Shown: positions 5,362-41,000 of the stretch, in pieces
Layout: the number at the start of each line of letters is the position of its first letter
Position numbering within the stretch: position 1 is the first letter of the stretch
Source: Candidatus Woesearchaeota archaeon
Lineage (GTDB): Archaea; Nanobdellota; Nanobdellia; Woesearchaeales; GW2011-AR4
Length of the DNA: 64,000 nucleotides
Reading direction: 5' to 3'
Assembly: GCA_016185945.1 (NCBI GenBank)
Contig: JACPMR010000010.1
Span: forward strand, 109,923-173,922
The notes under the pieces: generated by a model
What the model was told of the DNA's origin: nothing
Databases searched by the model: none
The model's input: the letters and a program-made list of their open reading frames with translations, nothing else
Position numbers and translations under genes: made by a program

Positions 5362-5407
5362 ATAAGGAAAGTTTATATAGTCTATTTAAATTTTGTTGCA
5401 ATTTAAA

Positions 5408-6880: not shown

Positions 6881-6886
6881 GTAATA

Positions 6887-7243
6887 ATGAAAATAAAAAA
6901 TAAAATTGGAATTGGTGCAGATATTGTCAGAGTTAATAGGTTTGAAATCGTAAAAAATGACAAAAAATTTTTAAATAAAGTATTCTCTAAGAAGGAGATA
7001 GAATATTGTAGGAATAAAGCCAATGCTGCAGAAAGATTCGCAGCAAAATTTGCTGGGAAAGAAGCTGTTATGAAGGCATTCAGCGCCTTTAACAAAAAAA
7101 TGAATTTAAGCGATGTAGAGATTATAAACAAAAACAAAAGCCCAAAAGTAATAATAAAAAACCTTAAAGGGTTTAATATAAACTTGAGTTTATCGCACGA
7201 AAGGGATTACGCTGTTGCTTTTGCATTAATAACAAAAGAATAA
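6887..7243 (+). CDS. acpS: Holo-ACP synthase (AcpS-type phosphopantetheinyl transferase)
   Basis: GIGADIV, FAGKEAVMKA, LSLSHERDYAVA. Confidence 0.93.
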   Translation: MKIKNKIGIGADIVRVNRFEIVKNDKKFLNKVFSKKEIEYCRNKANAAERFAAKFAGKEAVMKAFSAFNKKMNLSDVEIINKNKSPKVIIKNLKGFNINLSLSHERDYAVAFALITKE

Positions 7244-7253
7244 GGGGGTAATT

Positions 7254-7505
7254 GTGGTAATAGAAAAAGTTATTGCTTTTTTGCAGTCAGACCCAGAGGT
7301 CAAGGAAAAATGGGATGATAAAGTTACCCATGACACGCATTTGATTGATGCTGGAGTTATAGATTCTTTCGCAATCATAAAACTGATAATGTTTTTAGAG
7401 GAAGAATTTAACATTAAACTAGAGTCAAATGAACTCGTTGAAAACAATTTTTCTACTCTTAAAAATATTGAGAAACTTGTAATTGAAAAAAATAATCAAA
7501 AATAA
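7254..7505 (+). CDS. Acyl carrier protein (DltC-like)
   Basis: 83 aa, acidic; GVIDSFAII phosphopantetheine Ser motif; FLEEEFNI. Confidence 0.9.
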   Translation: MVIEKVIAFLQSDPEVKEKWDDKVTHDTHLIDAGVIDSFAIIKLIMFLEEEFNIKLESNELVENNFSTLKNIEKLVIEKNNQK

Positions 7506-7506
7506 G

Positions 7507-9261: not shown

Positions 9262-9274
9262 TAATCTGAAAGCC

Positions 9275-9688
9275 ATGAAATATGAAGATATATTGATTGG
9301 AGATACGGCTTCATTCAAGCATACAATTACAGAAAAGGATGTTGAATTATTTGCAAAAATATCAGGTGACAAAAATCCGCTGCATTTTGATGAAAATTTT
9401 GCAAAAAAGGCAGATTTTTCAGGAAAGATAGTCCATGGAATGCTTGCCGGCTCATTGTTTTCGAAGCTTGTTGGTATGCATTTGCCTGGAAGATGTATTT
9501 ATGTTTCGCAAGAACTCGAGTTTAAAAATCCCATAACCCCAAATACCGAAATCATTATAGAAGGAAGAGTAATAAAGAAGATAGATGTATTTAGATTGGT
9601 GACTATAGAGACAAATATCAAGGATCCATTGTCAAACAAAAAATACATAACTGGCAAAGCAAGAGTAAAAGTTCTAAATGTCGATTAA
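9275..9688 (+). CDS. MaoC-like (R)-specific dehydratase
   Basis: FAKISGDKNPLH, IVHGML hot-dog hydratase motif. Confidence 0.92.
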   Translation: MKYEDILIGDTASFKHTITEKDVELFAKISGDKNPLHFDENFAKKADFSGKIVHGMLAGSLFSKLVGMHLPGRCIYVSQELEFKNPITPNTEIIIEGRVIKKIDVFRLVTIETNIKDPLSNKKYITGKARVKVLNVD

Positions 9689-24064: not shown

Positions 24065-25972
24065 ATGGCTGAGTTAAAGAGAGTTCTGGGTTTTTGGACT
24101 ATTCTGGCGCTTTCGATTGCCTCAATCATGGGAACTGGCTTGTTCTTCGGCGCTGCAATAGGCTCAAGCTACTCCGGCAACGCTTCAATACTGGCGTGGC
24201 TTATCCTAAGCTTTGTTGCTTTTTATATCGCAATGTATTTTGCCGAGCTTTCCTCTATGTACCCAAAGGCTGGCGGAGTTTACGAGTTCAGCAAGCATGC
24301 ATACACCAGATTTGTGTCGTTTTTGATGGGGTGGATTGCGTGGCTTGTCGGCAACCTCGCAACTGCTTTGCTTGTTGTAGCAGCTATTGACTACCTTATT
24401 CCGGATTCTTCGCAATTCTGGCTCAAGATGGGCATAAGCATATTGTTGATAATCATATTAAATTTGGTTGCTTATTTTGGAATCAAGGCAAGCGCACTAT
24501 TGCTTGCAGTTTTTGCGTTTATCTCAATCGGCGTCCTGATGGCCTTTATATTTCCGGGATTGTTTCAAATCAATGCAGCCAATTATTTTCCAATCTATGA
24601 ATTTGGATTCTCTTCTGTACTTATAACGATGTTTTTTATTGCAGAAAGTTTTTTCGGATGGGAAAGCGCCACTTATCTCGCAGAAGAAACTCAAGAGCCA
24701 GAAAAGGTTATACCCAAAGCGATTTTAATAGGCACGATAATAATAGGGGTTATAGGAATTTTAACTTTTATCGTGTCGCTTGGGGTTATTCCATGGAGGA
24801 TACTTGCTGCTTCAAACGCGCCTCTGTCCATTGTGTCTGAAAAGGTGCTTGGCAGTTTTGGCATGAGGGCAGTCAATCTTGGAATTTTTGTTGCGCTCAT
24901 CGGCTCTGCAGCAGGAGGCATAATAACAATGCCCCGCCTTATTCTTGCATTGGCGAGGGACAAACTGTTCATCACCCAGTTAAGTGAAATTCATGAAAAA
25001 TTCAAGACTCCCCATAAAGCGATTATTTTCCAGACAATTGTTTCGCTTCTTGTATTCGGAATGGCTTTTGGAAGATACAAAGCCTTGCTTAGCCTGCTAC
25101 TTCCTCTTGGCTTTATGATGTACTCATTTGTGATATTGTCAGTTCCTGTGTTAAGGAAGAAAGAACCAGATACGAAAAGGGGGTTTAAAGTGCCTTTTGT
25201 AGGTGTTGGCTCTATTGTTTTGATTGCCTTCATAATAAGCGTTGTGGCTGTTTGGCTTTTGTCAAATCCTGACGCAGCCAACACGCTCAAATTAGGATTT
25301 TCGCTTTTTTTCGTTGGAGTGCCAATATACCTTATGCTTGAGATATACTACAACCCGGATGCCATAATAAAAATAAACGACATGCTCGCTTATTTGACTT
25401 TATTGTCCGAAAGCATAATTTTGCCAAAAAGCGTCAGAAACGAGATACTTGCATTACTTGGGGATTTGAAAGGCAAAAGGGTTCTGGAGTTTGGCTGCTC
25501 CGTAGGGACATTGACAATGCATCTTGCAGAGGCAGTCAAGCCAAACGGAAGGGTTTATGCAACTGACTTGTCGAGAAGGGACTTGATGATAACAAAGAAA
25601 AGATTGAATAAGAGAAACCATAAGCATGTCATTGTAGTGCATGATGAGCACCAAGTAAACAGGGTGCATCCGTCCATTCCTCATGTTGATGCAATAGTAA
25701 GCATAGGAATGATGGGATATTTGCAGGATGTGAAAAAGGTTTTGAAAGAGATGAGGGAATTATTGCCTTATGGGAGCAAGATTGTTTTTGTTGACTATGC
25801 TGATTTCTTTAATATCATTCCAAATGTCGCATGGCTTTCCAATGACAGAGTTATTGAAAAGATGTTTCGTGATGCCGGCTTTTCTGTCTTTGTGACGAGA
25901 AAAAAGGGGTTGTTCTGGAATTATGTCTATGTTTATGGGATTAAGTTTCAAGAAAATGTGCCGTATGTTTAG
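24065..25972 (+). CDS. APC-family amino acid permease fused to a C-terminal class I methyltransferase domain
   Basis: IMGTGLF, ELSSMYPKAGGVY, GWESATYLAEE; C-terminal RVLEFGCSVG motif I. Confidence 0.88.
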   Translation: MAELKRVLGFWTILALSIASIMGTGLFFGAAIGSSYSGNASILAWLILSFVAFYIAMYFAELSSMYPKAGGVYEFSKHAYTRFVSFLMGWIAWLVGNLATALLVVAAIDYLIPDSSQFWLKMGISILLIIILNLVAYFGIKASALLLAVFAFISIGVLMAFIFPGLFQINAANYFPIYEFGFSSVLITMFFIAESFFGWESATYLAEETQEPEKVIPKAILIGTIIIGVIGILTFIVSLGVIPWRILAASNAPLSIVSEKVLGSFGMRAVNLGIFVALIGSAAGGIITMPRLILALARDKLFITQLSEIHEKFKTPHKAIIFQTIVSLLVFGMAFGRYKALLSLLLPLGFMMYSFVILSVPVLRKKEPDTKRGFKVPFVGVGSIVLIAFIISVVAVWLLSNPDAANTLKLGFSLFFVGVPIYLMLEIYYNPDAIIKINDMLAYLTLLSESIILPKSVRNEILALLGDLKGKRVLEFGCSVGTLTMHLAEAVKPNGRVYATDLSRRDLMITKKRLNKRNHKHVIVVHDEHQVNRVHPSIPHVDAIVSIGMMGYLQDVKKVLKEMRELLPYGSKIVFVDYADFFNIIPNVAWLSNDRVIEKMFRDAGFSVFVTRKKGLFWNYVYVYGIKFQENVPYV

Positions 25973-26419: not shown

Positions 26420-26682
26420 ATTAATACTTTAGTTATTTGCTGTTTTTAAATCTTTTGCTTTTCTTAGTGGATAAAATTTATGAGAATGTACCATATTTTT
26501 GAACGGAAAAATTTAAATAAGATTAGGCATTAACTTAACTTGGGGGTGTATGGCTATTTCGGAGTGGTTAATAGCTAGGATTGGGATTTTGACTTCTATG
26601 TTCTTCTTTTGGGAAAACTGCCATTCAATTTCATCAAAATCTATTAAAAAACAAAGATGGTTTTCTATGAATGGGGGTTAAG

Positions 26683-29622
26683 ATGAGAAAAATAATTATT
26701 TGGATTTTTGGGGTGTTTTTGCTGGTTATGCCGCTAGTTAATGCCTTCGTAATAAATGAAAGCTTTGTGAATGAGAGTACGCTCAATAATTTTCTCACAA
26801 CAGGTTATGTAGATTTATTTGATGGAAAATTTCATGCTAACTGGATTTATAATTGGACAAACACTGAAGAGGATGGCAGCATAAGCGATTGGGATGATTC
26901 AGCGACTGGGACACTTGTGACAAGCCCGGTGAAGAAGGGAGTATATTCCATCAGAGCAGACTCTGGCATTTATGACAACTTTGTAAGTGCTGCTGCAACC
27001 GATTTATGCGGAGAATGGTGGTATCAAGATAATGGCGGAAATAATGAGATGCATGGATTTAGGGACAGCGGTTCTACAGCCCACAGGATAGGAAGATGCA
27101 GCGTTGGGGCATGCGGAACTTCTGACAGCTTCTGGACTTATCAAGATTCAGCTTCATTGCAAACTTCAAACATACCAATGGATACAGCATCAGGCAAATG
27201 GGCAAAAATAAGAATGTGTGCTGGTGCAGGCGGCGGCTACATTCTTGTCTGGGATAGCACACAAAAAGGAAGACATGTTGCCAACATATCTAACTTGTAT
27301 GCCATAAACAGGTACGATTTGGCAAGTACCGGAGCATGGGGGTTTTATGTGGATGAGCCTAGGGTATTCCGCCCAAGCGCAGGCGCAAGAAACGCAAGCA
27401 CAGGCTCTATGTCATTTGTATCCCTTCCACAGGAATTAGGTTCGCAGGAGACGTCTATAAAAGCAAATTGGAAAACAATTGTTGGCTCTGGAGTGGTGGT
27501 AAAGGTAAGCTTGGATAATGGAACAACCTGGGACACAATATCCGCGAGTGGAGATTCTGTGACTCCTGGCGGAACTTCTGGGCATTTAGTGTACAACATT
27601 TCTGTAACAGACGCAACTACTGAAATTGATTGGGTTTCATTTGAACGCGGAGTTGCTCAGGCTGTTGAACAAAATTGCTGGTCAATGGATAAAACAGACA
27701 TGAAAGATAACGAAATATTGAAGGATTTAAACAATACAAACAATATGACTATAATCAGCTCTCCCTTAAACGAATCGGGGACAGATTGTAAAATAGGGGG
27801 ATGCATACATTTTGACGGCAATTCTGATTATTTAAAAAGTCAGGAAAATGCCGGAATAACAGGTGCAAGTGCAAGAAGCTGGACTGCATGGGTTAAGCAT
27901 GATGCAGCCCCGGCTACAACCCAAGATTTGTTTGTTTACGGAAGCGAAGTTGACTGCGGAGTTAATGGTTTAATAACCTTAAGCAGCAATGTTTTATACC
28001 ATTTCGGATTTGGCCCTTGCGATATTACTTTCACAGGTTATAAAGCACCGGAAGAATGGACATTTTTTGCTGTTGTTTATGATGGTAATACTCTAACTTT
28101 ATTTATCAACGGGACTAATACAAGTTCCGGAGTTGTACCACTTAATTCTGTGAATAATAAAATAAGCGTAGGTCTTAGGCAGATAGGGGGAAGTCCTACA
28201 ACTTATTTTGATGGCAGAATAGATGAATTAAAATTTTGGGACGGGGCTTTAACTTCTGCTCAAATAACATCTGAGTATAATTCTGGAAGCGGTATAAGTT
28301 GTAGTGGAACAACTGCTCCACCCCCAAGCACACCATCATCAAAATTTCCCTACTCCAGCCCGTTAGGCAGAAGTGGAAATGAGACTTTCGACAGCAATGC
28401 TGTTATGTCTGTCAACTGGTCAACAGCTTCAACTTCAAATGGAGTTGCATCTATCACCAATGGCTTGAGTTCAGCAACACACAAATATCATTATCAGGTT
28501 GCAGAAGCGACTGGTGCTACATTGCATTACCCAGTTTCACAATTCTTTAAATTCAGAGTAAGAAATTCAACTGCAAATTGTAACTTAATAGGATGGATGT
28601 CAACCAATGATACAACAGGAGGAGGTATAAGTTGGTATGAAAGCGGAGGAAATTTTATATTGTATGATGATGAACGAGGTAACTTCGATATTATTGATGG
28701 GTTAAAGGCAGACAGCACTTGGCAAGATGTGGCAGTTAAAGCAGGACTCGATGGCAGAATAAATGTTTCTATAAATGGTACAAAAGTCGCTTCAGTTGAA
28801 TGGAGAGCAGATGGAGCGCCAAACGCACCACCATTGTTTTTTGCATTAAGAAGATTTAAAGGTGCAGACACTTCTTGTGGTTATGAGCTTGATAATCTGG
28901 TTTTTGTAAATGGGACTAATTATCCTGCTGACCAACAACTACCTCCACCACCTCTTGACACAACACCGCCAGGAATAACATCATATAACATGACTTCGTC
29001 TGGAGGGTGCACTAATTGGAACATTGACAAGAATAATCCTTGTACAACCAGCAATACTTTGCCAATTGTAAGCTTTGCAACAAATGAAAGCGCTTTCTGC
29101 AGGATAGGGGTTACTAATGTAAATTACACAAGCATGGGGGTTACTAGAAATTGTTTAGGTGGGGAAGGAACAATACAGCACGCATGTACTTTAACCCAGC
29201 AAGACCAGTTGACACAGCAGAGCTCTTTCATTTACTTAAGCTGCAAAAATGCAAATAACAATGAAAACCCAGCAAGCACTTCTGGAGCATTGGCATTGAC
29301 TATAACGGGATTAGTAGCGGATGAGCCACAAGGCGTCGCTGCAATAGAAACAGGCATCAGCAATGCTCTTGTTTCTGGCTACACAGTTCACTCAAATCAG
29401 AAGATATATGTAAGAAGGCTGGATGGAACCCAAAGTTATGGCACATTTGACAGAGTGGCAAAATGGAATGGAAAGATATGGGCATTTAATTATATTACGG
29501 GATTGGATAATCTGATGGGCATGCTGAATATGACGCCTGTGCTGCATGTGCTTGAGCTTGCAAACTTGAGCACAGCAACTATTACATCTAATGTTCAAGC
29601 AACTATAACTTCAACCAAATGA
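26683..29622 (+). CDS. Secreted LamG/concanavalin-like domain protein
   Basis: Signal peptide; FDGNSDYL, WTAWVK, WTFFAVVYDG, FDGRIDELKFWD; Pro linkers. Confidence 0.85.
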   Translation: MRKIIIWIFGVFLLVMPLVNAFVINESFVNESTLNNFLTTGYVDLFDGKFHANWIYNWTNTEEDGSISDWDDSATGTLVTSPVKKGVYSIRADSGIYDNFVSAAATDLCGEWWYQDNGGNNEMHGFRDSGSTAHRIGRCSVGACGTSDSFWTYQDSASLQTSNIPMDTASGKWAKIRMCAGAGGGYILVWDSTQKGRHVANISNLYAINRYDLASTGAWGFYVDEPRVFRPSAGARNASTGSMSFVSLPQELGSQETSIKANWKTIVGSGVVVKVSLDNGTTWDTISASGDSVTPGGTSGHLVYNISVTDATTEIDWVSFERGVAQAVEQNCWSMDKTDMKDNEILKDLNNTNNMTIISSPLNESGTDCKIGGCIHFDGNSDYLKSQENAGITGASARSWTAWVKHDAAPATTQDLFVYGSEVDCGVNGLITLSSNVLYHFGFGPCDITFTGYKAPEEWTFFAVVYDGNTLTLFINGTNTSSGVVPLNSVNNKISVGLRQIGGSPTTYFDGRIDELKFWDGALTSAQITSEYNSGSGISCSGTTAPPPSTPSSKFPYSSPLGRSGNETFDSNAVMSVNWSTASTSNGVASITNGLSSATHKYHYQVAEATGATLHYPVSQFFKFRVRNSTANCNLIGWMSTNDTTGGGISWYESGGNFILYDDERGNFDIIDGLKADSTWQDVAVKAGLDGRINVSINGTKVASVEWRADGAPNAPPLFFALRRFKGADTSCGYELDNLVFVNGTNYPADQQLPPPPLDTTPPGITSYNMTSSGGCTNWNIDKNNPCTTSNTLPIVSFATNESAFCRIGVTNVNYTSMGVTRNCLGGEGTIQHACTLTQQDQLTQQSSFIYLSCKNANNNENPASTSGALALTITGLVADEPQGVAAIETGISNALVSGYTVHSNQKIYVRRLDGTQSYGTFDRVAKWNGKIWAFNYITGLDNLMGMLNMTPVLHVLELANLSTATITSNVQATITSTK

Positions 29623-32600
29623 GGCAACAAGAGTTTATGGCAAAGAAGGGTGTGCTGATGAAAAATCAGAAAAAATGGCAGGCAGCAAGCTTAGTTGCCC
29701 TTTTGATTATTCTAGTTTCTATGATTCCTTTGTCTCTGGCAGCTGAAAACCAGCAGACTAATAGAATAGAGAAACTCTCTAAAGCCCAGCTTAGTAAACT
29801 GGACGAGCAGGTCAAGGAAAGGCTTAATTCTTCCGACGCCACCATAAAAGTCCTGCTAAAGAAAAAGAAAGCAAAAAAGGTTTTTGGAATTTCAGTTCTG
29901 GAGAATGCCAACAGGAAGGCTGTCTTCAATGCCTTATCCGATTCAGAAGGCAAAGTTTACAGGGAAACAAAAAATTATGTTGTTGCAGAAGTTCCTGCTG
30001 ACAAATTAGCTGATTTGGTTTTGAGCAATTCTGTGGAAATGATGTATGCTGAGCAAAATTACAACTTACTTCTTGAGCAAAGCGTTCCTGCTGTCAATGC
30101 TCCTGCTGCATGGAATATTGGATATACAGGAGCCGGAGTTAAAGTTGCCGTGCTGGATACCGGAATAGACTATGGGAATAGCGCTTTTCAAAATCGAGTT
30201 GTTTTGTCCCAGGCATTTACAGGAGAAAATCACACTATTGACCTGCATGGGCATGGCACTCATGTTGCCGGCATCATAGGAGGCAATGGCACATTGAAAG
30301 GAGTTGCTCCTGACGCATTGCTATTAAATGCAAAGGTACTGAATGACTATGGCAGCGGAACTTCATCATCAATAATTGCAGGCATTGAATGGGCTGTGCA
30401 AAACGGGGCAAGAGTGATTTCCATAAGCTTTGGAAAATCTGACAGCTCCCAGGACATTCCATTATTTGAATCGTTGCAATATGCGATTGACAATGGAGCA
30501 GTTGTTGTTGCAGCATCCGGCAATTGCGGAAGCTGTGGAAGCTGCAATGGGTTTTTTGGAGTTACAACTCCCGGAAATTTCGAGCCTGCCATTACAGTGG
30601 GAGCTGTTGACGACTTGAAGCAAATTGCCTGCTTTTCCTCGGGGCAGGATTTTGGAAGCTACGTCAAGCCCGATGTTGTTGCGCCTGGCGTCAATATAAA
30701 CTCATATTATATTAACAGCCAGCTCAAGGCATTAAGCGGCACTTCAATGTCCACTCCCCATGTTTCAGGAGCAGTGGCTTTGCTATTGCAGAAAAATTCC
30801 AGCCTGAACAATTCCGAAGCAAAAAAGCTGCTTGAAAGTTCTGCTGTTGATTTAGGCGCAGGCGGAAAAGACATTTCTTACGGAAGCGGATTCATTGACA
30901 TAAGCAAGCTTGTTTTGGGCAATGCCGCAAACCAGACATTAGTCGTCAACAACACCAATATCACAAATCCCATAATCCAAAACACAACAAATGGGCTTAT
31001 TGTTGATTTCAGAAAAACTATAGATGTAAACGACACCAATCCAATCAGTCTAAGCAGCGAGCAATACCTTGCCAATATTTCCTTAACAATTGCCAAAGAC
31101 GGCATTCCATCAGTGCAGGAATATTCGGAAATGCATTATTTTGAATACAACTTTACCAAAAGCTCCGAGATTGGCAATTACAATATGAAATTCAATCTCT
31201 GCGGAGACAATTGCACTAGTTTGAATTACAGCTTCGATGTTGTTGACAAAAATGATGGCATCCAGATTGTAAGCATCCAGCCAATAAAGGAAAGCGATAT
31301 TGCATTTATAAAAAGCGTGAGCAACACTTTCAGCATTGATGCTGCCAACGAGTCAGGTGCTTTAGAGTACTCAAGCGCGGAAGCAAGCAACACATGCACA
31401 GGTGCAGGTTTGCTTAACCTAAATACATTGTATTATGCTTACATTCAATCTGCCGGCGATGTAGATTGGTTTTACTTCAACGTGCCCGGCGCAGGCACAG
31501 GGGAGTTTACGACAACACTTGATGTCCCCACAAACAGGGATTATGAGCTGGAGCTTTATGACTCGTGCTCAAACATGATATGCTTCTCATATGGAGGGAC
31601 TGGCACGGATGAAAAATGCATAGCCAACATAAGCAGCAAGAGCAAGATGTATGCAAAAGTCTATGGCTACAATAGTCAATACGACGCGTCCAGCGAATAT
31701 TATATCAAGAGCACTTTTCAGGAAAAGACAGGATATGCAAGGCTCTATGTCAACAACTATGAGCCGTCAGGGTATTATTTATACATATACATTGATGGCT
31801 CTCTTTACGGGAGCATTAGTGTAAGCGGGTACATAAATTATTTGGTGAATCCTGACATTGTGCTGTCAAGCGGAAGCCATTCCATAAGGCTGATAGGGAC
31901 AAACAACTACAACAGCAAAACCTATGACAAGACAATTACACAAACCATTAGCGGCGGGGCTGTCACAACCTTCCAATACAATATAGACTTGAGAGACTGC
32001 ACCTCAGGCAGCTGCTGCGATTCATATGGCTACTTCAAGGGCACTAATTGGATTTGCAACAGCATATACCAAACAAGCTATGGCTGCCCTTGGGGAACTG
32101 ACGCAGGAAGCGATGTTGGGATAAGATACCAAAGGATGTATTGCAGCGGCACAAGCTCGTCCTGCAACGGAAACACTGTATGGGGAGACTGGGCTCTTTA
32201 CGCAAGCTGCAGCTCAAGCCAAAGATGCAATTCCGCGACTTTAAGCTGCGAGAATATAGTTGTATGCGGCGATGGAACATGCAGCAGCAATGAAGTATGC
32301 CCAAAAGACTGCCTGAAAGTCACTTCTTTTACTGCGGCAGTGCCTAGTGAAGTAAGTGAAGGGCAGGAAATCAATGTAGAAGTAAACATAAAAAATATCG
32401 GAACCGTAACGCAGTCAGGAAAAGTGGAAGTTGGCATTATACCAACTGACTTTTTTAACAGGAATATTCTCCAAGCGGATACTTCTTGGCCAGTAACAGG
32501 GTGCTGCGAGCAAAATGAATACTATGACACGAGAGAAGTGGAAAGAGATCCCGGAAGTCAGAAGTATACTGTGTTTACACTGAAAGCTCCCACCACATCG

Positions 32601-35600
32601 TCATTTGATAATTGCGATGCAAACTCGCCAAAAAAATCAGCATGGGGCAGCTCTTTTAAAGTCATAGCAGGCGCTTACGACGCATGCGGAGGTAGCTATT
32701 ATTCAAGCATTGAAAAAACCATCAGCATCAAGAACAGATATGATTACATTGACTTGGTTGATTATAGTTTAGTGCCTCCCAACCCCATAGTCTATAAAGG
32801 AAATTCTCTTAAGTTTAGATATCAAATAAGCAACAGCTGGCATTCTTCGGTAAATGTCGGGCTTGGAGCATCACTGAGAGATTCTAATAGCAAGGGGTAT
32901 AATGATGAGCCAAATGATATAGTCATTTCGGTGTTGCCCGGGACTTATTGGTATGAAAGGACATTTACTACAAACAATAATTACATATTTGGTAATTATG
33001 ATGCTGCTTGGGGCGTACATAAAGTTGACGCTAATAATAAGTTTGCTGGTGAAATTGAATTTTCAAATCCTTTGTGGGCAGATGATTTGGTTAAAGTTGT
33101 CGGTTGCGGTGATGGCGCATGCGGCAGCGGAGAAACATCAACGTCATGTCCTCAGGACTGTTATGCAAACATTCAGATAGGCAGGATAGAAGAAATAAGT
33201 CCAGCAAGTGCTGTGGAAAATCAGCAAGTTACCTTCCAAGCTTCTGTATCTAATACCGGGACTGTTCAGGGAGAGAAGTCAATAGAGGGCGCTGTTGTGC
33301 CTGAAAGCTGGGCAGGAATAATTTATCCAGCTACCGAGTATTCAACATCTTATGTTGAGCCAATAACCAAACCATGTCCTGACAATAAATATTATGATGC
33401 TTTCAATATCACCTTAAATCCAAATGAAGGCGAATTTGTGCAATTTACTGTGATTGCGCCAAACAGAACTTCAGTAGATGCCTGCAATCCAAGCAGGAGC
33501 GCATGGGATCCGAATGGGAGATTCAGAGTTATTGCAGGAACATTCCAAAATGCAGGCGACACATATGAAAGCTTTAAGAATGTTTCTTACACAGTAAATC
33601 AATATGTCTGTTTAGTAGATTCTGAATGTCCAGACGGAGCTTTGATAACCCAATATTGCTTGGGCAATGATATCTATGAGGACTATAATGCCGGAAAATG
33701 CTCAGATAATAAATGCTCCTTTCAGCCAAAATCAAGGCTAGTCAAAAGCTGCGCTTATGGGTGCACTTCCGGAACCTGCAATCCCCCTCCTTGCAACTTC
33801 AAAGACGGCTCTTCAATGGACTGCGAATGCGACTCTGATGTGGAGTGCCCTTCGGGACATTATTGCAACCAGGTTTCAGGGCCTGATGCTTGTGAGAAAA
33901 TAATTTATCAAAATCAATGCTCAAATTTCAATGATTATTTCTGCGAAGATGGGGCTGTGAAGAAATGCGTCAATAACGGAAAGTTTTGGGAAAAGCAGAA
34001 AATCGATGGTTGTACTGGCAAATTTCAATATTGTGATCCATCGGTTGTTGATGGAACTGGGAACTGCTCTGAGTATCCTAAGAATTTTGATGTATGGCTT
34101 GATTATGCAGACACTGGAATGGTTGTGAACAAACAGCCAGGGGACAAATTAAAGATTAATGTTTACTCTGAATCTTCATATACATTGAATGTTATTTATG
34201 ATTCAAGCATCTTTGCAGGCAATTGCAGAACAATGTCTGTGCATTCAGGCGAAAATACTTGTAGTTTGACTGTGCTGGACACTGCTGAAGAACAAACAAT
34301 TTTCATTAAGGTTGAGAACAAGCCAAAGCAAGTCAATATAATAAACAAGCCAGAGCTTCTCATAATAACAGATTCTGAAAAACTTACTCAGCAATTCCAG
34401 TTTGAATCGAATGGAGTAAAAGCAGTTTTAAAGCAGGCATATGCAAATGCCCGAGATAAAGGAGTTGTTTATGACTTAAGCTGGTACAAGAACGAATTGG
34501 GAACTTCAAGTCCATTTAGTTCTTTTGTTGCTTACAACGAGAAAATAACAAAGCCATCAATGACAGATAATTCCTATAGCACAGCAGTCTCTACATTCAT
34601 TAAAGACAAATGCACTGATTGCAAAGACGTGATGATTGTTGGGGATGATTATGTGGTGCCGGGGTATAGGGCAGAGACTGTAAATTACGACTCAGACTGG
34701 TATTATTTATGGCTAAATAAACGTATAGAAACTTCACCTATTTACACTGACTCACCTTATATCATCAAGAAAAAAACATTTGGAGAAATAAATTCCCTCT
34801 TTGTTGAAAATGGAAAAAAGAAAAATGTAGCTTTAGTTTATTCGAATAATGCAGATGCAGAAGTTATAAATGAGATAAGTAATTTAAAAAACTTAATCAA
34901 AACAAAATATTCAATTGACAGTGAAATAATTGATTCTTCTGCGGTTGCATGTAATTCCTTCAACAAGCTTAAAGACAAAACTTTGATTATCATAGGAAGA
35001 AAAAACTCAAATAATCTTTTGCCTTGCTATTCTATGTTTGAATCTGACTTTAACAACTCAGTTTCTATAGAAAGAAATTTATGGTCTAATAAAAAAGATT
35101 CCTCTGTCATTATAGATGAAAAGAAAAGAGCCATATTAACATTTGAAGAATTTATTAAAGATAATCAAGAGTTAGTTAAATTCAAGGAAAAATCTAAAGT
35201 TTATGCATATGCAAATGATTTCCTGGATATTTTTAAAAATTTTGAGGTAACATTAGATGATGGAACAAAAATAACTATAGAGCAAGGATTCAGAGGCTAT
35301 ATTATGGGCCAATGCGAATATATTCCTGGCTTAGTAAACAGCCTCAAATGTTCTGCTTTTGACATGACTGTTTCCTCAATTCCCGGCGTTGGGATTGTTA
35401 CTGATGCGAGAGATGCGGCTTTAATCTGTCCAGAATTTGTTGCTGAAGGAGGTACTTTAAATGGCATTGTCTGCGGTGCATCTACAGGAGGCGCAATTAC
35501 TTCTGCGACAACTATTATTTTTGGAGCTACAGTTGTTGGAGGAGTTGCTTCAGAAGGGGCTGATATTGCACTTTCAACTATTAAGGTTGTTGCTAAAACC

Positions 35601-36329
35601 ATTGCAAGGGTGGACAAGAGAATCTTTGAGGTATTTAAGTTTGGGAATAAGATTGATTCGATGAAATCTTTCTTTAAGATAAACGACTGGAAAGAGGTTT
35701 CAAAAATTAAGTCTATTTTGAAGAATATGCTTGAAAATGCAAGACAGATAAGAGTTTTAATTGATACTAAAATTGATGTGATTGGAAAGCACATAAAGAG
35801 TTTTGATAATTTGGTAAAAACTTCTAAGACTTATGATAAAGTATCTAATTTCCTGAAAAACAATTTAAGAAATAGTGATAGCGTTAAAAAAGCATTAGAT
35901 GAAGGAAAAATCAGTCCTGATGACTTAGAATATTTTGATGAGATGCTGGCTAACAAGAATTTGAAAGTTAGTAACTTTGGTAAAGGTGCAACTGAACAAG
36001 GCGGTGTAAAGTACCCTGTTACACTTGAGAATTTTGGAAAACCTCATGATGAGGCATATGTATTTGTTAGAAGTAATTATCCCAATCCTCAGAAATTCAG
36101 CCATCAACTTCAAGTAAAAAATGGGGAGAAAGTTTATAATTTCAGGTTGGATAGTGATCCTAAACCCCATTCAAATATTGAAATCAGAAAAAAAGAAGAG
36201 CTGGATGCAATAGTTAATGAACATTTAGACCTTGATTTAGATATTAAAAATCAAAACGATATGGACGATGCTCTTGAGAATTTCTTTACACTCATTAAAT
36301 CAACTGTTAGTAGGGGTGAACTGCCATGA
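29619..36329 (+). CDS. Giant secreted S8 subtilase with PPC/CARDB/Cys-rich repeats, N-half of a C25-like domain, pre-toxin-like segment and candidate toxin tip
   Basis: LDTG/HGTHVAG/SGTSMSTPH triad; GDVDWF PPC-like; CGDGxC repeats; LLIITD..MIVGDDYVVP..YTDSPY; SIPGVGIVTDARD; basic divergent C-terminus. The subtilase call is firm, the toxin call is inferred. Confidence 0.8.
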   Translation: MRQQEFMAKKGVLMKNQKKWQAASLVALLIILVSMIPLSLAAENQQTNRIEKLSKAQLSKLDEQVKERLNSSDATIKVLLKKKKAKKVFGISVLENANRKAVFNALSDSEGKVYRETKNYVVAEVPADKLADLVLSNSVEMMYAEQNYNLLLEQSVPAVNAPAAWNIGYTGAGVKVAVLDTGIDYGNSAFQNRVVLSQAFTGENHTIDLHGHGTHVAGIIGGNGTLKGVAPDALLLNAKVLNDYGSGTSSSIIAGIEWAVQNGARVISISFGKSDSSQDIPLFESLQYAIDNGAVVVAASGNCGSCGSCNGFFGVTTPGNFEPAITVGAVDDLKQIACFSSGQDFGSYVKPDVVAPGVNINSYYINSQLKALSGTSMSTPHVSGAVALLLQKNSSLNNSEAKKLLESSAVDLGAGGKDISYGSGFIDISKLVLGNAANQTLVVNNTNITNPIIQNTTNGLIVDFRKTIDVNDTNPISLSSEQYLANISLTIAKDGIPSVQEYSEMHYFEYNFTKSSEIGNYNMKFNLCGDNCTSLNYSFDVVDKNDGIQIVSIQPIKESDIAFIKSVSNTFSIDAANESGALEYSSAEASNTCTGAGLLNLNTLYYAYIQSAGDVDWFYFNVPGAGTGEFTTTLDVPTNRDYELELYDSCSNMICFSYGGTGTDEKCIANISSKSKMYAKVYGYNSQYDASSEYYIKSTFQEKTGYARLYVNNYEPSGYYLYIYIDGSLYGSISVSGYINYLVNPDIVLSSGSHSIRLIGTNNYNSKTYDKTITQTISGGAVTTFQYNIDLRDCTSGSCCDSYGYFKGTNWICNSIYQTSYGCPWGTDAGSDVGIRYQRMYCSGTSSSCNGNTVWGDWALYASCSSSQRCNSATLSCENIVVCGDGTCSSNEVCPKDCLKVTSFTAAVPSEVSEGQEINVEVNIKNIGTVTQSGKVEVGIIPTDFFNRNILQADTSWPVTGCCEQNEYYDTREVERDPGSQKYTVFTLKAPTTSSFDNCDANSPKKSAWGSSFKVIAGAYDACGGSYYSSIEKTISIKNRYDYIDLVDYSLVPPNPIVYKGNSLKFRYQISNSWHSSVNVGLGASLRDSNSKGYNDEPNDIVISVLPGTYWYERTFTTNNNYIFGNYDAAWGVHKVDANNKFAGEIEFSNPLWADDLVKVVGCGDGACGSGETSTSCPQDCYANIQIGRIEEISPASAVENQQVTFQASVSNTGTVQGEKSIEGAVVPESWAGIIYPATEYSTSYVEPITKPCPDNKYYDAFNITLNPNEGEFVQFTVIAPNRTSVDACNPSRSAWDPNGRFRVIAGTFQNAGDTYESFKNVSYTVNQYVCLVDSECPDGALITQYCLGNDIYEDYNAGKCSDNKCSFQPKSRLVKSCAYGCTSGTCNPPPCNFKDGSSMDCECDSDVECPSGHYCNQVSGPDACEKIIYQNQCSNFNDYFCEDGAVKKCVNNGKFWEKQKIDGCTGKFQYCDPSVVDGTGNCSEYPKNFDVWLDYADTGMVVNKQPGDKLKINVYSESSYTLNVIYDSSIFAGNCRTMSVHSGENTCSLTVLDTAEEQTIFIKVENKPKQVNIINKPELLIITDSEKLTQQFQFESNGVKAVLKQAYANARDKGVVYDLSWYKNELGTSSPFSSFVAYNEKITKPSMTDNSYSTAVSTFIKDKCTDCKDVMIVGDDYVVPGYRAETVNYDSDWYYLWLNKRIETSPIYTDSPYIIKKKTFGEINSLFVENGKKKNVALVYSNNADAEVINEISNLKNLIKTKYSIDSEIIDSSAVACNSFNKLKDKTLIIIGRKNSNNLLPCYSMFESDFNNSVSIERNLWSNKKDSSVIIDEKKRAILTFEEFIKDNQELVKFKEKSKVYAYANDFLDIFKNFEVTLDDGTKITIEQGFRGYIMGQCEYIPGLVNSLKCSAFDMTVSSIPGVGIVTDARDAALICPEFVAEGGTLNGIVCGASTGGAITSATTIIFGATVVGGVASEGADIALSTIKVVAKTIARVDKRIFEVFKFGNKIDSMKSFFKINDWKEVSKIKSILKNMLENARQIRVLIDTKIDVIGKHIKSFDNLVKTSKTYDKVSNFLKNNLRNSDSVKKALDEGKISPDDLEYFDEMLANKNLKVSNFGKGATEQGGVKYPVTLENFGKPHDEAYVFVRSNYPNPQKFSHQLQVKNGEKVYNFRLDSDPKPHSNIEIRKKEELDAIVNEHLDLDLDIKNQNDMDDALENFFTLIKSTVSRGELP

Positions 36330-36949
36330 GAAAATTTATTGTAAATAATAAGGGATTTATAGAATTGACATTAGACCCTGAAAGGAAAAAAGACCAGTAT
36401 TCGCGTATGCAGGATTTGAAGAAATTATTTGAACTATTTTCCAAATACTTAAATGTAAGATATATTTGTATACTTAGTGGATCATCCCCTATTTCAGAAT
36501 TTTTTTCTGTTCATGACTTTAGAAATTCTTTACAACTCATGAAAGGAGTCTATGATTATATTAACAACCATGCTATTGAATGCAAAGGTACCAAAAAATT
36601 AATTGGGGATGAATTCCATAATAGTTATGCTTACAGCGAGTATATTCTAAAAATTGATGAATTTTTTAAATTAATTGACAATTATGTTAAACTCAGGGAG
36701 AAATATGAACCAAAATATAACGCAAGGAATTGGATTATTACAGAAACAACTTTTGAGTTACTTGATAATAATAATGGGACTATGTTGGCATTCCATAATT
36801 ATGATAGCGGCCCTTTTATCATTAGCAACAGATTAGATGATATGTCCAATCCTGTAACCCCTGATTCTGATTTTGTTAATAAAATCTTGCCTATATTAAA
36901 AGAATGGGAGAAAGAAATAGAACAAGAAGAAAAAAATGCAAGGAAATAA
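36326..36949 (+). CDS. Candidate immunity protein
   Basis: No signal peptide; ATGA overlap and SD GGTGA inside the end of the toxin gene; AT-rich like the toxin tip. Confidence 0.6.
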   Translation: MRKFIVNNKGFIELTLDPERKKDQYSRMQDLKKLFELFSKYLNVRYICILSGSSPISEFFSVHDFRNSLQLMKGVYDYINNHAIECKGTKKLIGDEFHNSYAYSEYILKIDEFFKLIDNYVKLREKYEPKYNARNWIITETTFELLDNNNGTMLAFHNYDSGPFIISNRLDDMSNPVTPDSDFVNKILPILKEWEKEIEQEEKNARK

Positions 36950-37106
36950 ACTGTTAATCAGCATTATTGTATTGTTAGTTTTGCCCAGCTTAGCCTACGC
37001 ACAAACCCATTTAGAAGAAACCTCCTCCGTCTCAAGAATTGTCGGCGAATCTCCGACAGAGATGCTGAGGCAGATGCAGAGAAACGGGATAGAAGGTGAA
37101 AAATGA
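36936..37106 (+). pseudogene. Truncated paralog of the 38002 gene (signal peptide plus 24 conserved residues)
   Basis: MQGNKLLISIIVLLVLPSLAYAQTHLEETSSVSRIVGESPTEMLRQMQRNGIEGEK*. Confidence 0.8.
37014..37084 (+). repeat. 71-bp direct repeat, second copy at 38080-38150
   Basis: 66/71 identical by manual comparison; all 5 differences are at synonymous third positions. Confidence 0.9.
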
Positions 37107-37257
37107 CCTTTGAATCTGATTCGGACATTGAATGTGCGGCTTGCGGAAATAACTTTTACAGAGGCAGTATTATTGGGCAGTGCATAAATGATGGATTGTT
37201 TATTGCAGGAAAAAATAATGACGGAGATATTAACGAATCAGTTAAAGCAGAACAAAA

Positions 37258-37668
37258 TCACAGCCCAACCTCTTTCAACAGCTCCGAAGTAGAATATACT
37301 TTTACTTTTGATTGCCGCTTTAAATGCGGATCATTTGACCAGATTGATAGTTTAAGTTTCAATGCTAGAGCAAGGAAGTCTGTATCATCAGGATGCATTG
37401 GTATTAATGAAAGAGACTCTGGCAAAAATTGCTTGTACTCATCTAAAGGAATAAACTCGACAAATATTGCAAGGTCTCTCCTTAACTCCTTGAACTTTTC
37501 TAGTGATATGCCCGTTTTTTCTATAATTTCATCTGAGTATTTGTTGATTTCCTCCAGTGCAAATTCGGGAGCAAAAAATTCCAAATCTTGGTCTACTAGC
37601 AAGCCTTTGGTAAATGAATTTTTCCAGAAAAATGTAAACAGAATATTAGTGTCTACTACAAATTTCAT
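37258..37668 (-). CDS. PIN-domain toxin (PIN_2-like)
   Basis: FVVDTNIL, HPDDTDFLALA, IWSND. Confidence 0.9.
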   Translation of the reverse strand: MKFVVDTNILFTFFWKNSFTKGLLVDQDLEFFAPEFALEEINKYSDEIIEKTGISLEKFKELRRDLAIFVEFIPLDEYKQFLPESLSLIPMHPDDTDFLALALKLKLSIWSNDPHLKRQSKVKVYSTSELLKEVGL

Positions 37669-37866
37669 TTATACTAAACCCTTCTTTTTTAACTCATTAA
37701 ACCTGCCTCTTCTAGAGGCTCTTTGCAATTTTACAGACCAGTCGGTCATTTCTTTTTCTTCTTCTAATTGCTTTACTAGCCTTTTGACTAAGATGGACAT
37801 GTCTACTCCAGATTCTTTTATTTCTTTATTTAGCTCATCAGGAATTTCAACCTTTAACTCTGCCAT
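37669..37866 (-). CDS. Antitoxin partner (RHH/VapB-like)
   Basis: MAELKVEIPDEL; directly upstream of the PIN gene; SD GGTGA. Confidence 0.8.
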   Translation of the reverse strand: MAELKVEIPDELNKEIKESGVDMSILVKRLVKQLEEEKEMTDWSVKLQRASRRGRFNELKKKGLV

Positions 37867-38001
37867 TTTGCACTCACCGGATAAATACTATGAAGTTGTA
37901 TATTTAAATGTTGCGGAAGTCGTTGACTCTCAAAAATATGATAATGCTCTATTAAAAGTATTGGACGAAGTTAAAAAATTGAAGGGGTATTTAGGCGAGA
38001 A

Positions 38002-41000
38002 ATGAAAAAGGATAAACTAATAACTTCATTTTTTGTATTTGTACTACTTATTAATATAGCCTCAGCCATAACCACTTACGAAGAAACCTCCTCCGTCTCG
38101 AGAATAGTCGGCGAATCACCTACAGAAATGCTGAGGCAGATGCAGAGAAATGAAATAGATTTGCAGCATGCAACTTACTTTGGCCATAACCTTATTCTTA
38201 ATGAGAAAATATCTATTTTGAATGAGCAGTTTAAGGCAAACAAGCATGTTGAGACTGGATGGATGAGAAGAGAATTAGATAATAAAATTCCGGGATTTAG
38301 CACAAATGAGCTGTTTTTATTGGAAACAACTGGAGAGCCAGATACGCTATATGCAAAATCTAAAACTCTTACGTTTTTTGATGAAAAAATAACTCCAACC
38401 CATTTGCAACAATGGCAATTGTCATTCGAGACAAACAATCCATTAATGCTGTGGGACAGCCCTTATGCAGGCTCGTATCTTCCGAAAGAGGATACTTTTG
38501 TTTCGAGACTGGTAAGGGACACAACAATAATTGCTCCAACTTCGTTCAACAGCCCTGAATTCACAAAATCTTTCCTTTGCCAATTAGTAAATGACAAAAC
38601 CATAGGGCAGGTTTTCAAGGAAGCAAGAAACTTCCATTACAATGGAGGCTCAAAAACATCAGGAGATAATTTAATCGGATTAGTTCTGCAGTCATATGCT
38701 TTGTACGGCAATCCAAGGCAGGTAATAAAAATGGACTGGAACGATGCAGATTTGGAAAAAATAAAAAAATATTGCGAAAATTTCCTAGAAAACCTTGCGC
38801 CAGACATTGATTTTCTTGAGCAGGTTGGAAACTATTCAAAGTTCAGGAAGCATGTTGTGTTTGAGATTCCTTCATACACAATTGAAAGCAACGGCAACTA
38901 CTCTATAATAAACGCTGAGAACACTTTCCAGAACCTTGAATTTGGGGAATTAGTGCTGCCAATGGCAGTAAGGACAACACATTTCCCATTAAACACTTTG
39001 ATAACCAACTTTTCTGTTGACTACATTGGAGATTATGTTGATTTGACAGTCAATGACTTGCCATCTTACGAGCAGGAACTAGCAAACAGGACTTGCTATA
39101 CAGACAATGAAAGCCATTCCATACAATTTGAAAACTCATACACTGAAAACAGCCAGGATTTCATTGCAAGAATAACTCCAGTTGAAATTATAAACTGCAC
39201 TGAAGGAAGATTCAGGCTGTACAAAAAATTCAATTACTCAGTAGATTATATAGCGCTAAGCCCTGTTTTAATAAAAAGCATTGTTGCGCCGATTGTAGAG
39301 CCGGTAAACAGCATAGTCAATATAAGCATTGAGCTATTGCCATTGACAAGCAATGTATCAAATGGCTCCTTGGCGATATTTGATGAAAACAACAACAAGC
39401 TCTGGGAGCAGGAAACAACAACAAACATAACTAATTACAATGCCTCATTCTTAGCGCCAAACAAAGAAAGCTTAAGCACTTACAGCGTTGAATTCATTGT
39501 AAATAATGAAACCCTGAACTTTGATAAATTCTCTCTATTTTCAATATTGCTGGATGTCAGCGCAGATATTCCGGTGCATGCAAACTCAACTCAAGCAATA
39601 AACCTTAACTTTTATTCCTATTCTGCAGACAGCTTTGAGCTTCGAGGAAAATACTATCTCACAAAAGGAACGCAAATCATAGCAGAAGGCAATATAACAA
39701 AAACAATAAGCCAAGGGGCAAACCAGCATCAGCTTGTACTCTCCAACCTCTTAAGGGAAGAGCAAAGCTATACCCTAACTTTCGAGCTTAATTACCTCGA
39801 GCAGAGCAAGACATTAAGCTATATATTGAGCACAAACAATGTGCCGATTCTTTTCGCTGACATCTCTAAAAGTTACACAGAAAATGACACTGTAGCTATA
39901 AACTATACGGCATTTGATTATGACAACGACGCATTGAACATAACAATAAACGATTCCAGATTCGTAAACCAAGACAATGCATTTTTCTGGAAAACAAATA
40001 AGGGAGATGAAGGGAATTATAGTGTGAAACTTACAGCAAGCGACGGCTTAACCCAAGATACAAAAACACTTTCTTTCAGCATATCAAAGCCGCCTGTATT
40101 AACATTCATGAAAATTGAATCATTAAGCACAATATACACTCAAGGCTACTATAAAATATTTGAGTTTGTAATATTTAATGATGGATTTGTTACTATAACA
40201 GATGTCCAATGGCAGTTCGACACTGGTGACGCAAATATAATATCAAACAATCAGAATATAACTTCTTTAAGCCCTGGAGAAAGGACATTTGTCATTGTTG
40301 AATACAATTACACAAACAATGGAGTTTATAATGTGACTGCAAAAGCAAGCGGCATGGGGCAAGAGCCAGTAACAGCTCAATTAAGCTCAAGCGTGAATAT
40401 TGGAGGGCTTATAATAAAAAGGTTTGATGCAATCAGCATTATCGGAACTAATGCTGTATTTGAAGTGGAAGCCCAGAATATGCTTAACGAGCCGATAGGC
40501 AGCATAAGATGGACACTGGCAACAGGAGATGGAAGCATAATAAACTCGACAAATAGCTTCATGCTTGCTTCAAATGAAACCATAACGCTATTATTAGAAT
40601 ATAATTACACTTCAGGCAGTGTTTATAATCCAGTTTTTGAAATAACTAATGGTACTTACTCTAATTCAAAGTCAATGTTGATAAACACAACAAGCCCGGG
40701 AATATTGCCAACTCCTGTCCCGGCAAACAGAACGTTTCCAGATGTAAGCAAATTCCTTGTCAAAGACTCCTCTGGCAACAGCATAGCATGGTTCGGAGAT
40801 GCCGGCAATATTGTTATAAAAGGCGTGCTTGAGCAAAACTCCAATTATCAGGAACAGCCAAATGACCTGTTTGCAATGGCAAAGGATGGAAATGTGTTCT
40901 TTGTAATAGCGCAAAACGGCTCAATGTACATTGACGGAACTTTAACTGAAAAATTTGAAGGAACCTTGACATCCTCCAATGGGGTTAATAATTTGGGAAT

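Follow-up and report, generated by a model that had tools for sequence, protein, structure and literature searches.

A dead gingipain-type domain and its linked partner as a candidate docking module in a putative polymorphic toxin locus of DPANN archaea

In gingipains, a prodomain precedes the catalytic domain; chaperone–usher pili use donor-strand complementation, and cohesins and dockerins are dedicated docking modules. Polymorphic toxin systems, whose definition reportedly goes back to Zhang, Aravind and co-workers in 2012, include the CdiA-CT/CdiI and Rhs systems of bacteria. DPANN archaea are tiny, mostly uncultured and thought to live attached to other cells, and we know of no account of how their huge surface proteins are assembled or how they deliver toxins. 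Here we describe two secreted proteins, P0001 and P0004, encoded in a 64,000-nucleotide stretch of a Candidatus Woesearchaeota archaeon genome (GenBank assembly GCA_016185945.1, contig JACPMR010000010.1, positions 109,923 to 173,922; hereafter the window). P0001 carries a conserved domain that we call X, and P0004 carries a catalytically dead gingipain-type domain that we call Y.

In the open reading frame (ORF) list of the window, three plus-strand genes follow one another in the same direction. The first encodes P0001 (29619-36329), a giant secreted protein of 2236 residues that runs from a signal peptide through an S8 subtilase domain, beta-sandwich and Cys-rich modules, the X domain (34293-35225; two alpha/beta subdomains with C25-like motifs) and a hydrophobic Gly-rich linker to a variable C-terminal tail. 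The start of the second gene, a small ORF encoding P0002 (36326-36949; 207 residues), overlaps the stop of the first. The third encodes P0004 (38002-41091; 1029 residues), a secreted protein with a signal peptide, the Y domain (residues 24-247; 38071-38742), a prodomain-like beta-sandwich and Ig-like repeats. The locus resembles bacterial polymorphic toxin systems in its large, secreted, conserved carrier with an interchangeable C-terminal domain, putatively a toxin, and a small variable gene directly downstream, as well as in the extra cassettes found in a relative. It differs from them in its archaeal host, in the S8 protease and X domain of the carrier, and in the third conserved partner gene, encoding Y, that closes the cassette.

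We consider it reasonably probable, on the strength of structure predictions combined with comparative genomics, that the locus is a non-catalytic docking module of an archaeal polymorphic toxin system, in which X and Y would form the fixed coupler between a toxin-bearing and an adhesin-like subunit.

P0004 carries a dead gingipain-type domain

An initial annotation of the window had proposed that a gingipain-like (C25) domain, catalytically dead, is split between the two secreted proteins. All twelve motifs that it quoted occur where it placed them. In P0001, LLIITD begins at residue 1580 (nucleotide 34356), FIKD at 1660, VMIVGDDYVVP at 1671 and YTDSPY at 1709; in P0004, VSRIVGESPTEM begins at residue 32, nine residues past a signal-peptide-like segment, followed by ETTGEP at 108, WDSPYAG at 151, TIGQVFKEAR at 200 and YALYGNP at 232.

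For P0004, the proposed kinship is borne out well beyond chance by both structure and profile comparison. The structure model of Y, built with 40 sequences, has a predicted local distance difference test (pLDDT) score of 87.4 and contains the clan CD caspase–haemoglobinase fold of the gingipain C-terminal subdomain. Its best structural matches (VIA-align) are chains of RgpB: 4ief_D, with a Z score of 16.9, and 1cvr, with a Z score of 16.7 and a root-mean-square deviation (rmsd) of 3.2 over 206 aligned residues, model residues 1-224 lying on chain residues 102-351. Kgp (4rbm) reaches Z 15.2. Matches outside the gingipains score lower (CHAT, Z 14.4; separase, 14.2; legumains, about 12; caspases, about 10.7), and c-FLIP is also among them. 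Past its signal peptide, Y starts at the equivalent of RgpB strand beta4 and continues with a complete caspase-like subdomain.

In profile alignments (hhalign), the 40 Y sequences match 12 true archaeal C25 domains, taken from DPANN genomes of the same phylum and retaining the H-G and C motifs, with a probability of 88-91% (E 1-3e-6, 190 columns); Y 6-215 falls on C25 columns 110-340, from the VGR to the GDP motif. The alignment puts SVSRIVGESPTEM on FVGRFPASDPDEL, which agrees with the earlier proposal that P0004 begins with a match to the VGR motif, and YALYGNP on MLLGDP. It also places T110-G111 on the catalytic His-Gly and P154/Y155 on the catalytic Cys, so the readings of TG and P at these positions hold. 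Cys at the catalytic position occurs in 0 of 151 aligned family members; this column reads D in 51 rows, P in 37 and E in 21, and the next column Y in 90 and F in 18. The catalytic His column is variable, with H in 10 of the 151 rows. Pseudo-protease status thus extends across the family: Y corresponds to the C-terminal subdomain of a gingipain (clan CD, C25-like) but has lost both its catalytic Cys and its catalytic His.

A search with P0004 residues 1-333 recovers 159 cluster representatives at E ≤ 0.001 and 131 at 1e-10; these dead, gingipain-like N-terminal domains form a large family that had no name before. Of the 150 representatives listed, nearly all have Y at the extreme N terminus, with the match starting within the first 20-30 residues, so that it directly follows the protein's own signal peptide. 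No fused X–Y protein is seen among the Y representatives listed, and the single-chain, ten-stranded layout of C25 does not appear among them. The one candidate for a fused ancestor, P0032, was rejected: its extra 145 N-terminal residues precede a normal signal peptide, and its called start is probably wrong.

The N-terminal motif of mature P0004 (E-T-S-S-V-S-R-I-V-G-E-S-P, residues 28-40; 38083-38121) is near-invariant, most of all at E28, R34, G37 and P40 in the 151 rows, and is proposed to be the beta4 strand that complements the X sheet. A loose pattern of this motif finds 22 matches in the window and the 36 loci with an X domain described below, all of them Y starts, a stub or chimeras.

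Behind Y, the initial annotation had seen a propeptide-like region, and the model agrees. A beta-sandwich (P0004 residues 267-419, 38800-39258; model residues 244-396) matches the Kgp prodomain 5mun_A with Z 11.9 and rmsd 2.9 over 142 aligned residues, and the 4ief prodomain chains match it at a Foldseek E value of 1e-7. The Ig-like repeats that follow (39835-40383) give weak PKD, Big_9 and DUF7507 matches, all under the Pfam cut-offs. Relatives of P0004 carry PKD, cadherin-like, dockerin, LamG and MopE domains; Dockerin_1 occurs in 4 of 40 Y-family proteins and Cohesin in 1 of 40. Membrane anchoring of Y proteins by a C-terminal helix was considered and rejected, a hydrophobic end being present in only 15 of 104 long Y homologs and not in P0004.

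P0004 thus compares with the gingipains RgpB and Kgp (MEROPS C25, clan CD; PDB 1cvr, 4ief, 4rbm) in its superposition on RgpB, its profile alignment and its prodomain-like beta-sandwich. Unlike them, Y has neither the catalytic Cys and His nor a Pfam C25 match, the prodomain-like domain is placed after the catalytic-type domain, and the complete fold would span two polypeptides encoded 2.8 kb apart, with an extra flavodoxin-like subdomain in X. The c-FLIP protease-like domain and the pseudo-orthocaspases (for the latter, PMC6426788) are dead clan CD scaffolds that likewise keep a caspase-type fold after loss of the His/Cys dyad and use it for protein–protein contact. They are single-chain and pair with an active homolog, whereas Y would join a different partner domain in a predicted common sheet.

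Bona fide C25 peptidases do occur in the same phylum, and theirs is the profile to which Y aligns. A six-frame search for Peptidase_C25 finds none at E ≤ 1 in the window's own genome; the same search finds the true family in 17 of 301 genomes of the phylum. In contrast to X and Y, these domains (loci L037-L048) are single-chain and keep the H-G and C motifs, and BLAST of X and Y against them gives no match. They are apparently active, and some lie in very long ORFs of up to 5185 residues. Several of them match the Pfam model only from about position 105 onward.

X is a conserved two-subdomain unit

The initial annotation had P0001 diverge from C25 soon after YTDSPY. This part of its account fails: P0001 residues 1540-1900 have 13 homologs, in long proteins of Woesearchaeota and Nanoarchaeota, and the homology extends to about residue 1860-1865, well beyond that motif. 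The homologs cover 77-90% of the query, except P0018, in which the match is confined to the extreme end of the protein and amounts to 27%. X is an entire, conserved domain rather than a fragment, and no caspase-like part is seen in its structure matches. In X numbering, T26, G57-D61, N93, Y95, C107, C110, G117-D119, P123, D153, G235, N240 and W264 are invariant in the 13 sequences, among which there is no invariant His.

The first alpha/beta subdomain (residues 1576-1718; 34344-34772) contains LLIITD, FIKD, a CxxC motif, VMIVGDDYVVP and YTDSPY in a predicted beta-alpha-beta-alpha-beta order. The second (residues 1723-1848, TLIIIGRKN..NLW; 34785-35162) is flavodoxin-like by structure match. Its best match (X residues 165-290; VIA-align) is 9fsa, with Z 10.5 and rmsd 2.7 over 116 aligned residues; an N-domain of GH115 (Z 10.2) and BcsB (Z 9.4) follow. 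The structure 9fsa is described as the anchor and dimerisation domain of the Methanococcus voltae S-layer (PMC11410804).

We propose that the first subdomain is the equivalent of the gingipain N-terminal strands beta1-beta3. The order of its motifs speaks for such an identity with the C25 N-terminal subdomain, as do the predicted complex described below and a lead from language-model features: for X 15-165, a cluster named 'Peptidase family C25 domain-containing protein' stands at rank 3 with a score of 0.92, which we treat as a lead only. Descent of this subdomain from C25 is what we infer from these features. When X 18-160 is placed before Y 27-240 in the 19 paired loci, the hhalign score rises from 46.2 to 55.8 and the alignment runs through the junction, with CKDVMIVGDD..IYTDSPY on YLLLVGD..SDYYYS; full column shuffles reach the observed score in 1 of 100 cases, but other controls, given below, make the gain unspecific.

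Of the two halves claimed earlier, that of P0001 accordingly stands in part: its motifs are present and conserved, but its profile similarity to C25 is not significant (figures below). The split itself also needs rewording, because a break is possible within the N-terminal subdomain, with beta1-beta3 in P0001 and beta4 in P0004, but the caspase-like subdomain is whole in P0004.

The invariant CxxC (C107 and C110 of X; P0001 residues 1665-1668, 34611-34622) immediately precedes the VMIVGDD strand, within the region predicted to contact Y, and could be a disulfide or a metal site.

Predicted complex of X and Y

We predicted the complex from X with 13 alignment rows and Y with 40, alongside three controls. 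In this multimer test, which the initial annotation had suggested for the two halves, the pair passes: the interaction prediction score from aligned errors (ipSAE) is 0.87 (runs 0.89, 0.87 and 0.87), against 0.00 for the best of the three controls. The mark that it passes is reached by 116 of 157 solved complexes and by 2 of 215 mismatched pairs. The runs have at least 63% of their contacts in common, and the partners have pLDDT values of 77 or more.

The predicted interface is centred on the first subdomain of X. The contacts with the lowest error (X112-Y8, X113-Y9, X114-Y10, X115-Y11/12 and X117-Y13) lay X 112-118 (VMIVGD) parallel to Y 8-13 (SVSRIV). A review covering clan CD (PMC4357240) gives the strand order of RgpB as 6-5-7-8-9-10-4-3-1-2, in one ten-stranded sheet to which beta1-4 contribute from the N-terminal and beta5-10 from the C-terminal subdomain; beta4 is parallel to beta3 and lies between beta3 and beta10. 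With beta4 beside beta3 in the order given there, the predicted X:Y contact, which mimics the beta3-beta4 pairing of the RgpB N-terminal subdomain, is what a split gingipain sheet needs. The modelled complex reproduces the gingipain sheet; its two chains meet where beta3, contributed by X, adjoins beta4, with which Y begins.

Interface positions are also the more conserved ones. In X, they average 0.60 against 0.47 elsewhere (Mann-Whitney p 1e-4), and 14 of the 30 most conserved positions lie in the 20% that form the interface; in Y, the values are 0.54 against 0.39 (p 1e-5), with 13 of the 30 most conserved in 24% of positions. X 121-164, which is disordered in the monomer model (pLDDT < 50), falls in the predicted interface. 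On these models, X and Y would bind each other physically.

Such an arrangement would work like donor-strand complementation in chaperone–usher pili and like cohesin–dockerin pairing, in that the incomplete sheet of one extracellular protein would be completed by a strand of another and variable subunits would be coupled in a modular way. It shares no sequence or fold relationship with either, and its scaffold is a protease fold.

X and Y are an old gene pair

We scanned one genome per species for X and found 36 loci, in Woesearchaeota, Nanoarchaeota, Aenigmatarchaeota and metagenome-assembled genomes labelled Iainarchaeum. A Y gene lies downstream on the same strand in 24 of them, starting 1.6-4.6 kb on, with the match beginning at query residue 1-30. 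Eleven of the twelve X loci without Y end no more than 2.1 kb past X, and the twelfth (L033) is a partial X match only. The layout is regular: in 23 loci and the window, X is followed by 317-745 residues in frame, a stop, 272-4236 bp and the start of Y. The toxin tail and small ORF that the initial annotation saw between the two halves thus recur in 23 related loci, and the same split point, which it had suggested seeking in other genomes, is found in 24 loci over several DPANN lineages.

Co-occurrence is nearly one to one. Among 201 genomes of the order, X and Y each occur in 15, together in 14, and 185 lack both; the 14 include one unpublished genome (G364), and without it the count is 13 of 200. 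The two genomes with X or Y alone have a single match each, on fragmented assemblies. A single X and a single full Y are present in the genome from which the window comes (1.51 Mb, 90.7% complete), and another genome (G012) has two of each, paired in two loci.

The pairing of X and Y is old and conserved among DPANN archaea, and the split is the standard state of the family, not a peculiarity of this genome. A recent insertion of the toxin cassette, to which a local dip in GC (guanine plus cytosine) content might have pointed, was rejected as the cause of the split: several DPANN lineages have the same split in 24 loci, and every Y has its own signal peptide.

In one complete-looking genome (G380:C1:913694-929365), three consecutive X matches lie upstream of only one Y and may represent tandem carriers with a common partner. 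Several X loci, L001, L005 and L015 among them, lie on contigs labelled Pseudomonadota or 'uncultured Methanosarcinales', labels that are probably binning or naming errors.

Variable tails and possibly exchanged cassettes

The carrier is conserved among homologs and its C-terminal domains vary, as in polymorphic toxins. P0001 and its relative P0007 are 53% identical over residues 880-1865 and unrelated beyond. This homology ends at about residue 1865, which places the recombination boundary about 150 residues downstream of the divergence noted earlier. The tails are mosaic among the 24 loci, and three of the 24 exceed the Pfam cut-off for families of ADP-ribosyltransferase toxins (Scabin-like at 2e-15 and 2e-8; Enterotoxin_a at 5.5e-5). 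The P0001 tail itself (residues 1866-2236; 35214-36326) has a Gly-rich hydrophobic stretch at about 35361-35588 and then a putative toxin domain of no recognised family: a Pfam scan gave no family match, and a language-model look-up for toxin identity gave a best score of 0.78 and no lead. P0002, a putative immunity protein, has no Pfam or NCBIfam match and no homolog in the 36 related loci, as expected for the variable partner of a variable tail.

Directly after P0002, a 56-residue ORF (36936-37106, plus strand) encodes a signal peptide and the N-terminal strand and helix of Y (EETSSVSRIVGESPTEMLRQMQRN), and then stops. It shares a 103-nucleotide repeat, 83% identical, with the start of the Y gene (38057-38159). 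It is also 68% identical to P0145, a protein from elsewhere of the same length (56 residues) and with the same end; the mature parts are identical at 31 of 33 positions, and the signal peptides differ at 16 of 23. The ORF may be a dead remnant (a stub) of a Y gene, or it may encode a genuine mini-protein that is secreted.

Between it and the Y gene, on the minus strand, lies a VapBC-like pair (37258-37866). It comprises a PIN_2 protein of 136 residues (37258-37668; Pfam PIN_2, 1.7e-21) and, in an adjacent ORF on the same strand, a 65-residue partner (37669-37866) without a family match, which is the VapBC arrangement of a PIN-domain protein with a small upstream partner gene. The plus-strand ORF for P0003 (300 residues; 37103-38005) is antisense to this pair, including the PIN_2 gene, and has no family match; it is probably spurious, and we do not count it as part of the system. 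The Y-leader stub and the VapBC-like pair are all that the window has in this interval, with no extra ('orphan') toxin/immunity cassettes of the kind present in locus L003.

Window positions 34001-38000, from X through the toxin tail and small ORF to the VapBC insert, have a GC content of 0.336-0.337; at 30-34 kb it is 0.427-0.431, and at 40-42 kb 0.41. This dip is consistent with exchanged DNA.

In L003, the interval between the carrier and Y (5094-9343) holds, in order, a small ORF, a chimera (5647-6336), a small ORF, a second chimera (6904-7638), a small ORF and a 363-residue membrane protein. Each chimera joins the leader and strand of Y (…TTYEE.S.ARIIG) to toxin-tail sequence at a common IGDEAF stretch and is followed by a small ORF, and IGDEAF also precedes the toxin in the main gene of the locus. 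By eye, and unscored, the tail of the first chimera resembles that of P0010, the main carrier of another genome. These extra cassettes thus differ from those of bacterial polymorphic toxin systems in carrying a Y leader and not a piece of the carrier. A further protein, P0127 (109 residues), is also chimeric.

The L003 chimeras and the 56-residue ORF fit either cassette exchange by recombination at the 5′ end of Y or a portable plug that loads cargo onto X. On the latter reading, which we think unlikely, the mature N terminus of Y (signal peptide, ETxSVSRIVG strand and helix) would be the plug and X its socket, and the dead split gingipain fold would serve DPANN archaea as a general dock onto which interchangeable cargo is loaded. 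Any secreted protein with the plug, be it an adhesin, an extra toxin or a capping peptide, could then be clipped onto the giant S8/toxin carrier by strand complementation. The plug–toxin ORFs of L003, the chimeric P0127 and the plug-only 56-residue ORF with its near-unchanged mature part would all fit.

Proposed mechanism and its rivals

In the docking model, the first gene would supply the giant secreted carrier, with its S8 protease, spacers, X, hydrophobic Gly-rich linker and interchangeable toxin tail; the small variable ORF after it would be immunity-like, judging by its position; and the third gene would supply a large secreted Ig-repeat protein, the adhesin-like subunit, with Y as its mature N terminus. 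Outside the cell, the free, near-invariant Y strand (SVSRIVG) would insert beside the VMIVGD strand of X. The equivalents of beta1-3 in X, beta4 of Y and the caspase-like subdomain of Y would then make one continuous gingipain-like sheet over two polypeptides, with the dead protease fold as a fixed coupler that leaves both subunits free to vary outside it. The toxin-carrying and adhesin-like roles of the two subunits are putative.

Several results weigh against this model. The complementary hidden Markov model matches that the initial annotation hoped for in the two proteins do not exist: P0001 and P0004, whole or cut, have no match to Peptidase_C25 (PF01364; MEROPS C25) at E ≤ 10 in Pfam or NCBIfam, and at E ≤ 1 the Pfam model matches none of the 40 Y-family and none of the 13 X-family members. 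When the Y family alignment is searched as a profile against the PDB, Ig and cadherin structures match the repeats, but no C25 chain does at E ≤ 10. Comparing X with C25 in hhalign gives no significant result, whether 13 or 30 X sequences are used (probability 1-10%, E 0.003-0.04). The X monomer model is mediocre (pLDDT 69), and structure searches with it (Foldseek, VIA-align) give no match to the first subdomain; because all matches fall in residues 157-308, the lack of a gingipain among those listed is not evidence against gingipain. The gain at the X–Y junction is not specific, being equalled by 17 of 100 block-shuffled controls, and the second X subdomain put in the same place scores 53.3. 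The pass of the complex prediction may stem from the predictor's memory of single-chain gingipains and would then speak for likeness, not binding. Conservation of the interface is confounded with conservation of the fold core, related genomes are non-independent samples in the co-occurrence counts, and the putative toxin and immunity roles of the P0001 tail and P0002 are drawn from position and analogy. The earlier idea that the halves re-associate as a non-catalytic docking module therefore keeps the dead Y domain, the conserved pair and the predicted complex on its side, but has to do so with a kinship of X to C25 that lacks a significant sequence statistic.

In a rival explanation, X and Y are operon partners and not halves of one fold, with X an unrelated flavodoxin-like pair (for surface anchoring or dimerising, for example), Y an independent pseudo-protease head of an adhesin and the complex an artefact of the predictor. 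The only clear X matches, to the M. voltae S-layer anchor domain, GH115 N-domains and BcsB (Z 9-10.5), agree with such a separation, as do the hhalign result, the block shuffles and the confident folding of Y alone. We nevertheless think it unlikely. It sits poorly with the near one-to-one co-occurrence of X and Y and their fixed order over many families, and with the fact that the most conserved stretch of Y is its free N-terminal strand, which has no obvious role in an autonomous domain. The predicted pairing also has the register and the neighbour required by the RgpB sheet order, and all three complex controls scored 0.00. A quite improbable, though not exclusive, alternative is that the 5′ end of Y and the X/pre-toxin region are conserved mainly as DNA homology arms for swaps of toxin/immunity cassettes, with synteny, stubs and chimeras as by-products. 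The Y-leader stub right after the small ORF with its 83% repeat, the two L003 ORFs joined at IGDEAF and the GC dip are all in its favour. Yet the N-terminal motif of Y is kept at the protein level over families that are 26-35% identical elsewhere, which points to selection on the peptide, and DNA arms leave the conserved interface residues of X unexplained; swapping by homology arms is, moreover, compatible with docking.

Least probable by far, in our view, is an active X:Y peptidase or transpeptidase that frees the toxin tail with other residues, such as Cys107/Cys110 or Asp118/Asp119 of X. The toxin does need some release route, and the invariant CxxC and GDD of X adjoin the predicted interface; however, none of the 151 Y sequences has the catalytic Cys, the His position varies, the 13 X sequences have no invariant His, and P0001 already has an intact-looking S8 protease. 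This domain (residues 171-424; 30129-30890) matches Pfam PF00082 (Peptidase_S8) over 1-288 of 288 positions at E 1.1e-51, its D, H and S motifs are readable as VLDTGID, HGTHVAG and GTSMSTPH, and at least 18 of the 36 related loci have an S8 domain upstream of X.

Other genes near the pair

A 983-residue secreted LamG-domain protein (26671-29622, plus strand; Laminin_G_3, 4.6e-18) precedes P0001. Its stop overlaps the P0001 start by 4 nucleotides, so the two are probably co-transcribed; no homolog of it lies next to X among the 36 loci. A second big secreted S8 protease (17551-21507, plus strand; 1318 residues; Peptidase_S8, 6e-45, with Inhibitor_I9) is encoded 8 kb upstream of P0001 and has relatives in 21 of the 36 X loci, mainly the S8 part of carriers. 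A 635-residue ORF (24065-25972, plus strand) encodes an amino-acid permease (AA_permease_2, 3e-54) fused to a C-terminal methyltransferase domain.

Significance

A literature search found no description of the X–Y module, although it did not cover the main archaeal polymorphic-toxin survey, which may already describe part of it. Clan CD pseudo-proteases and polymorphic toxin systems are already known; the candidate new elements would be the two-chain sheet and the strict linkage of X and Y. Even if binding fails, the dead gingipain-like domains would stand as a large family at protein N termini, unnamed until now, to which a partner domain is strictly linked. If the docking model is true, a clan CD protease fold has acquired a new use as an extracellular coupler in two pieces, and it would be one of few domains whose sheet is made from the products of two genes. 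The module would then mark an archaeal polymorphic toxin system with three fixed parts (X; a variable tail with its small ORF; and Y) that simple metagenome searches could find.

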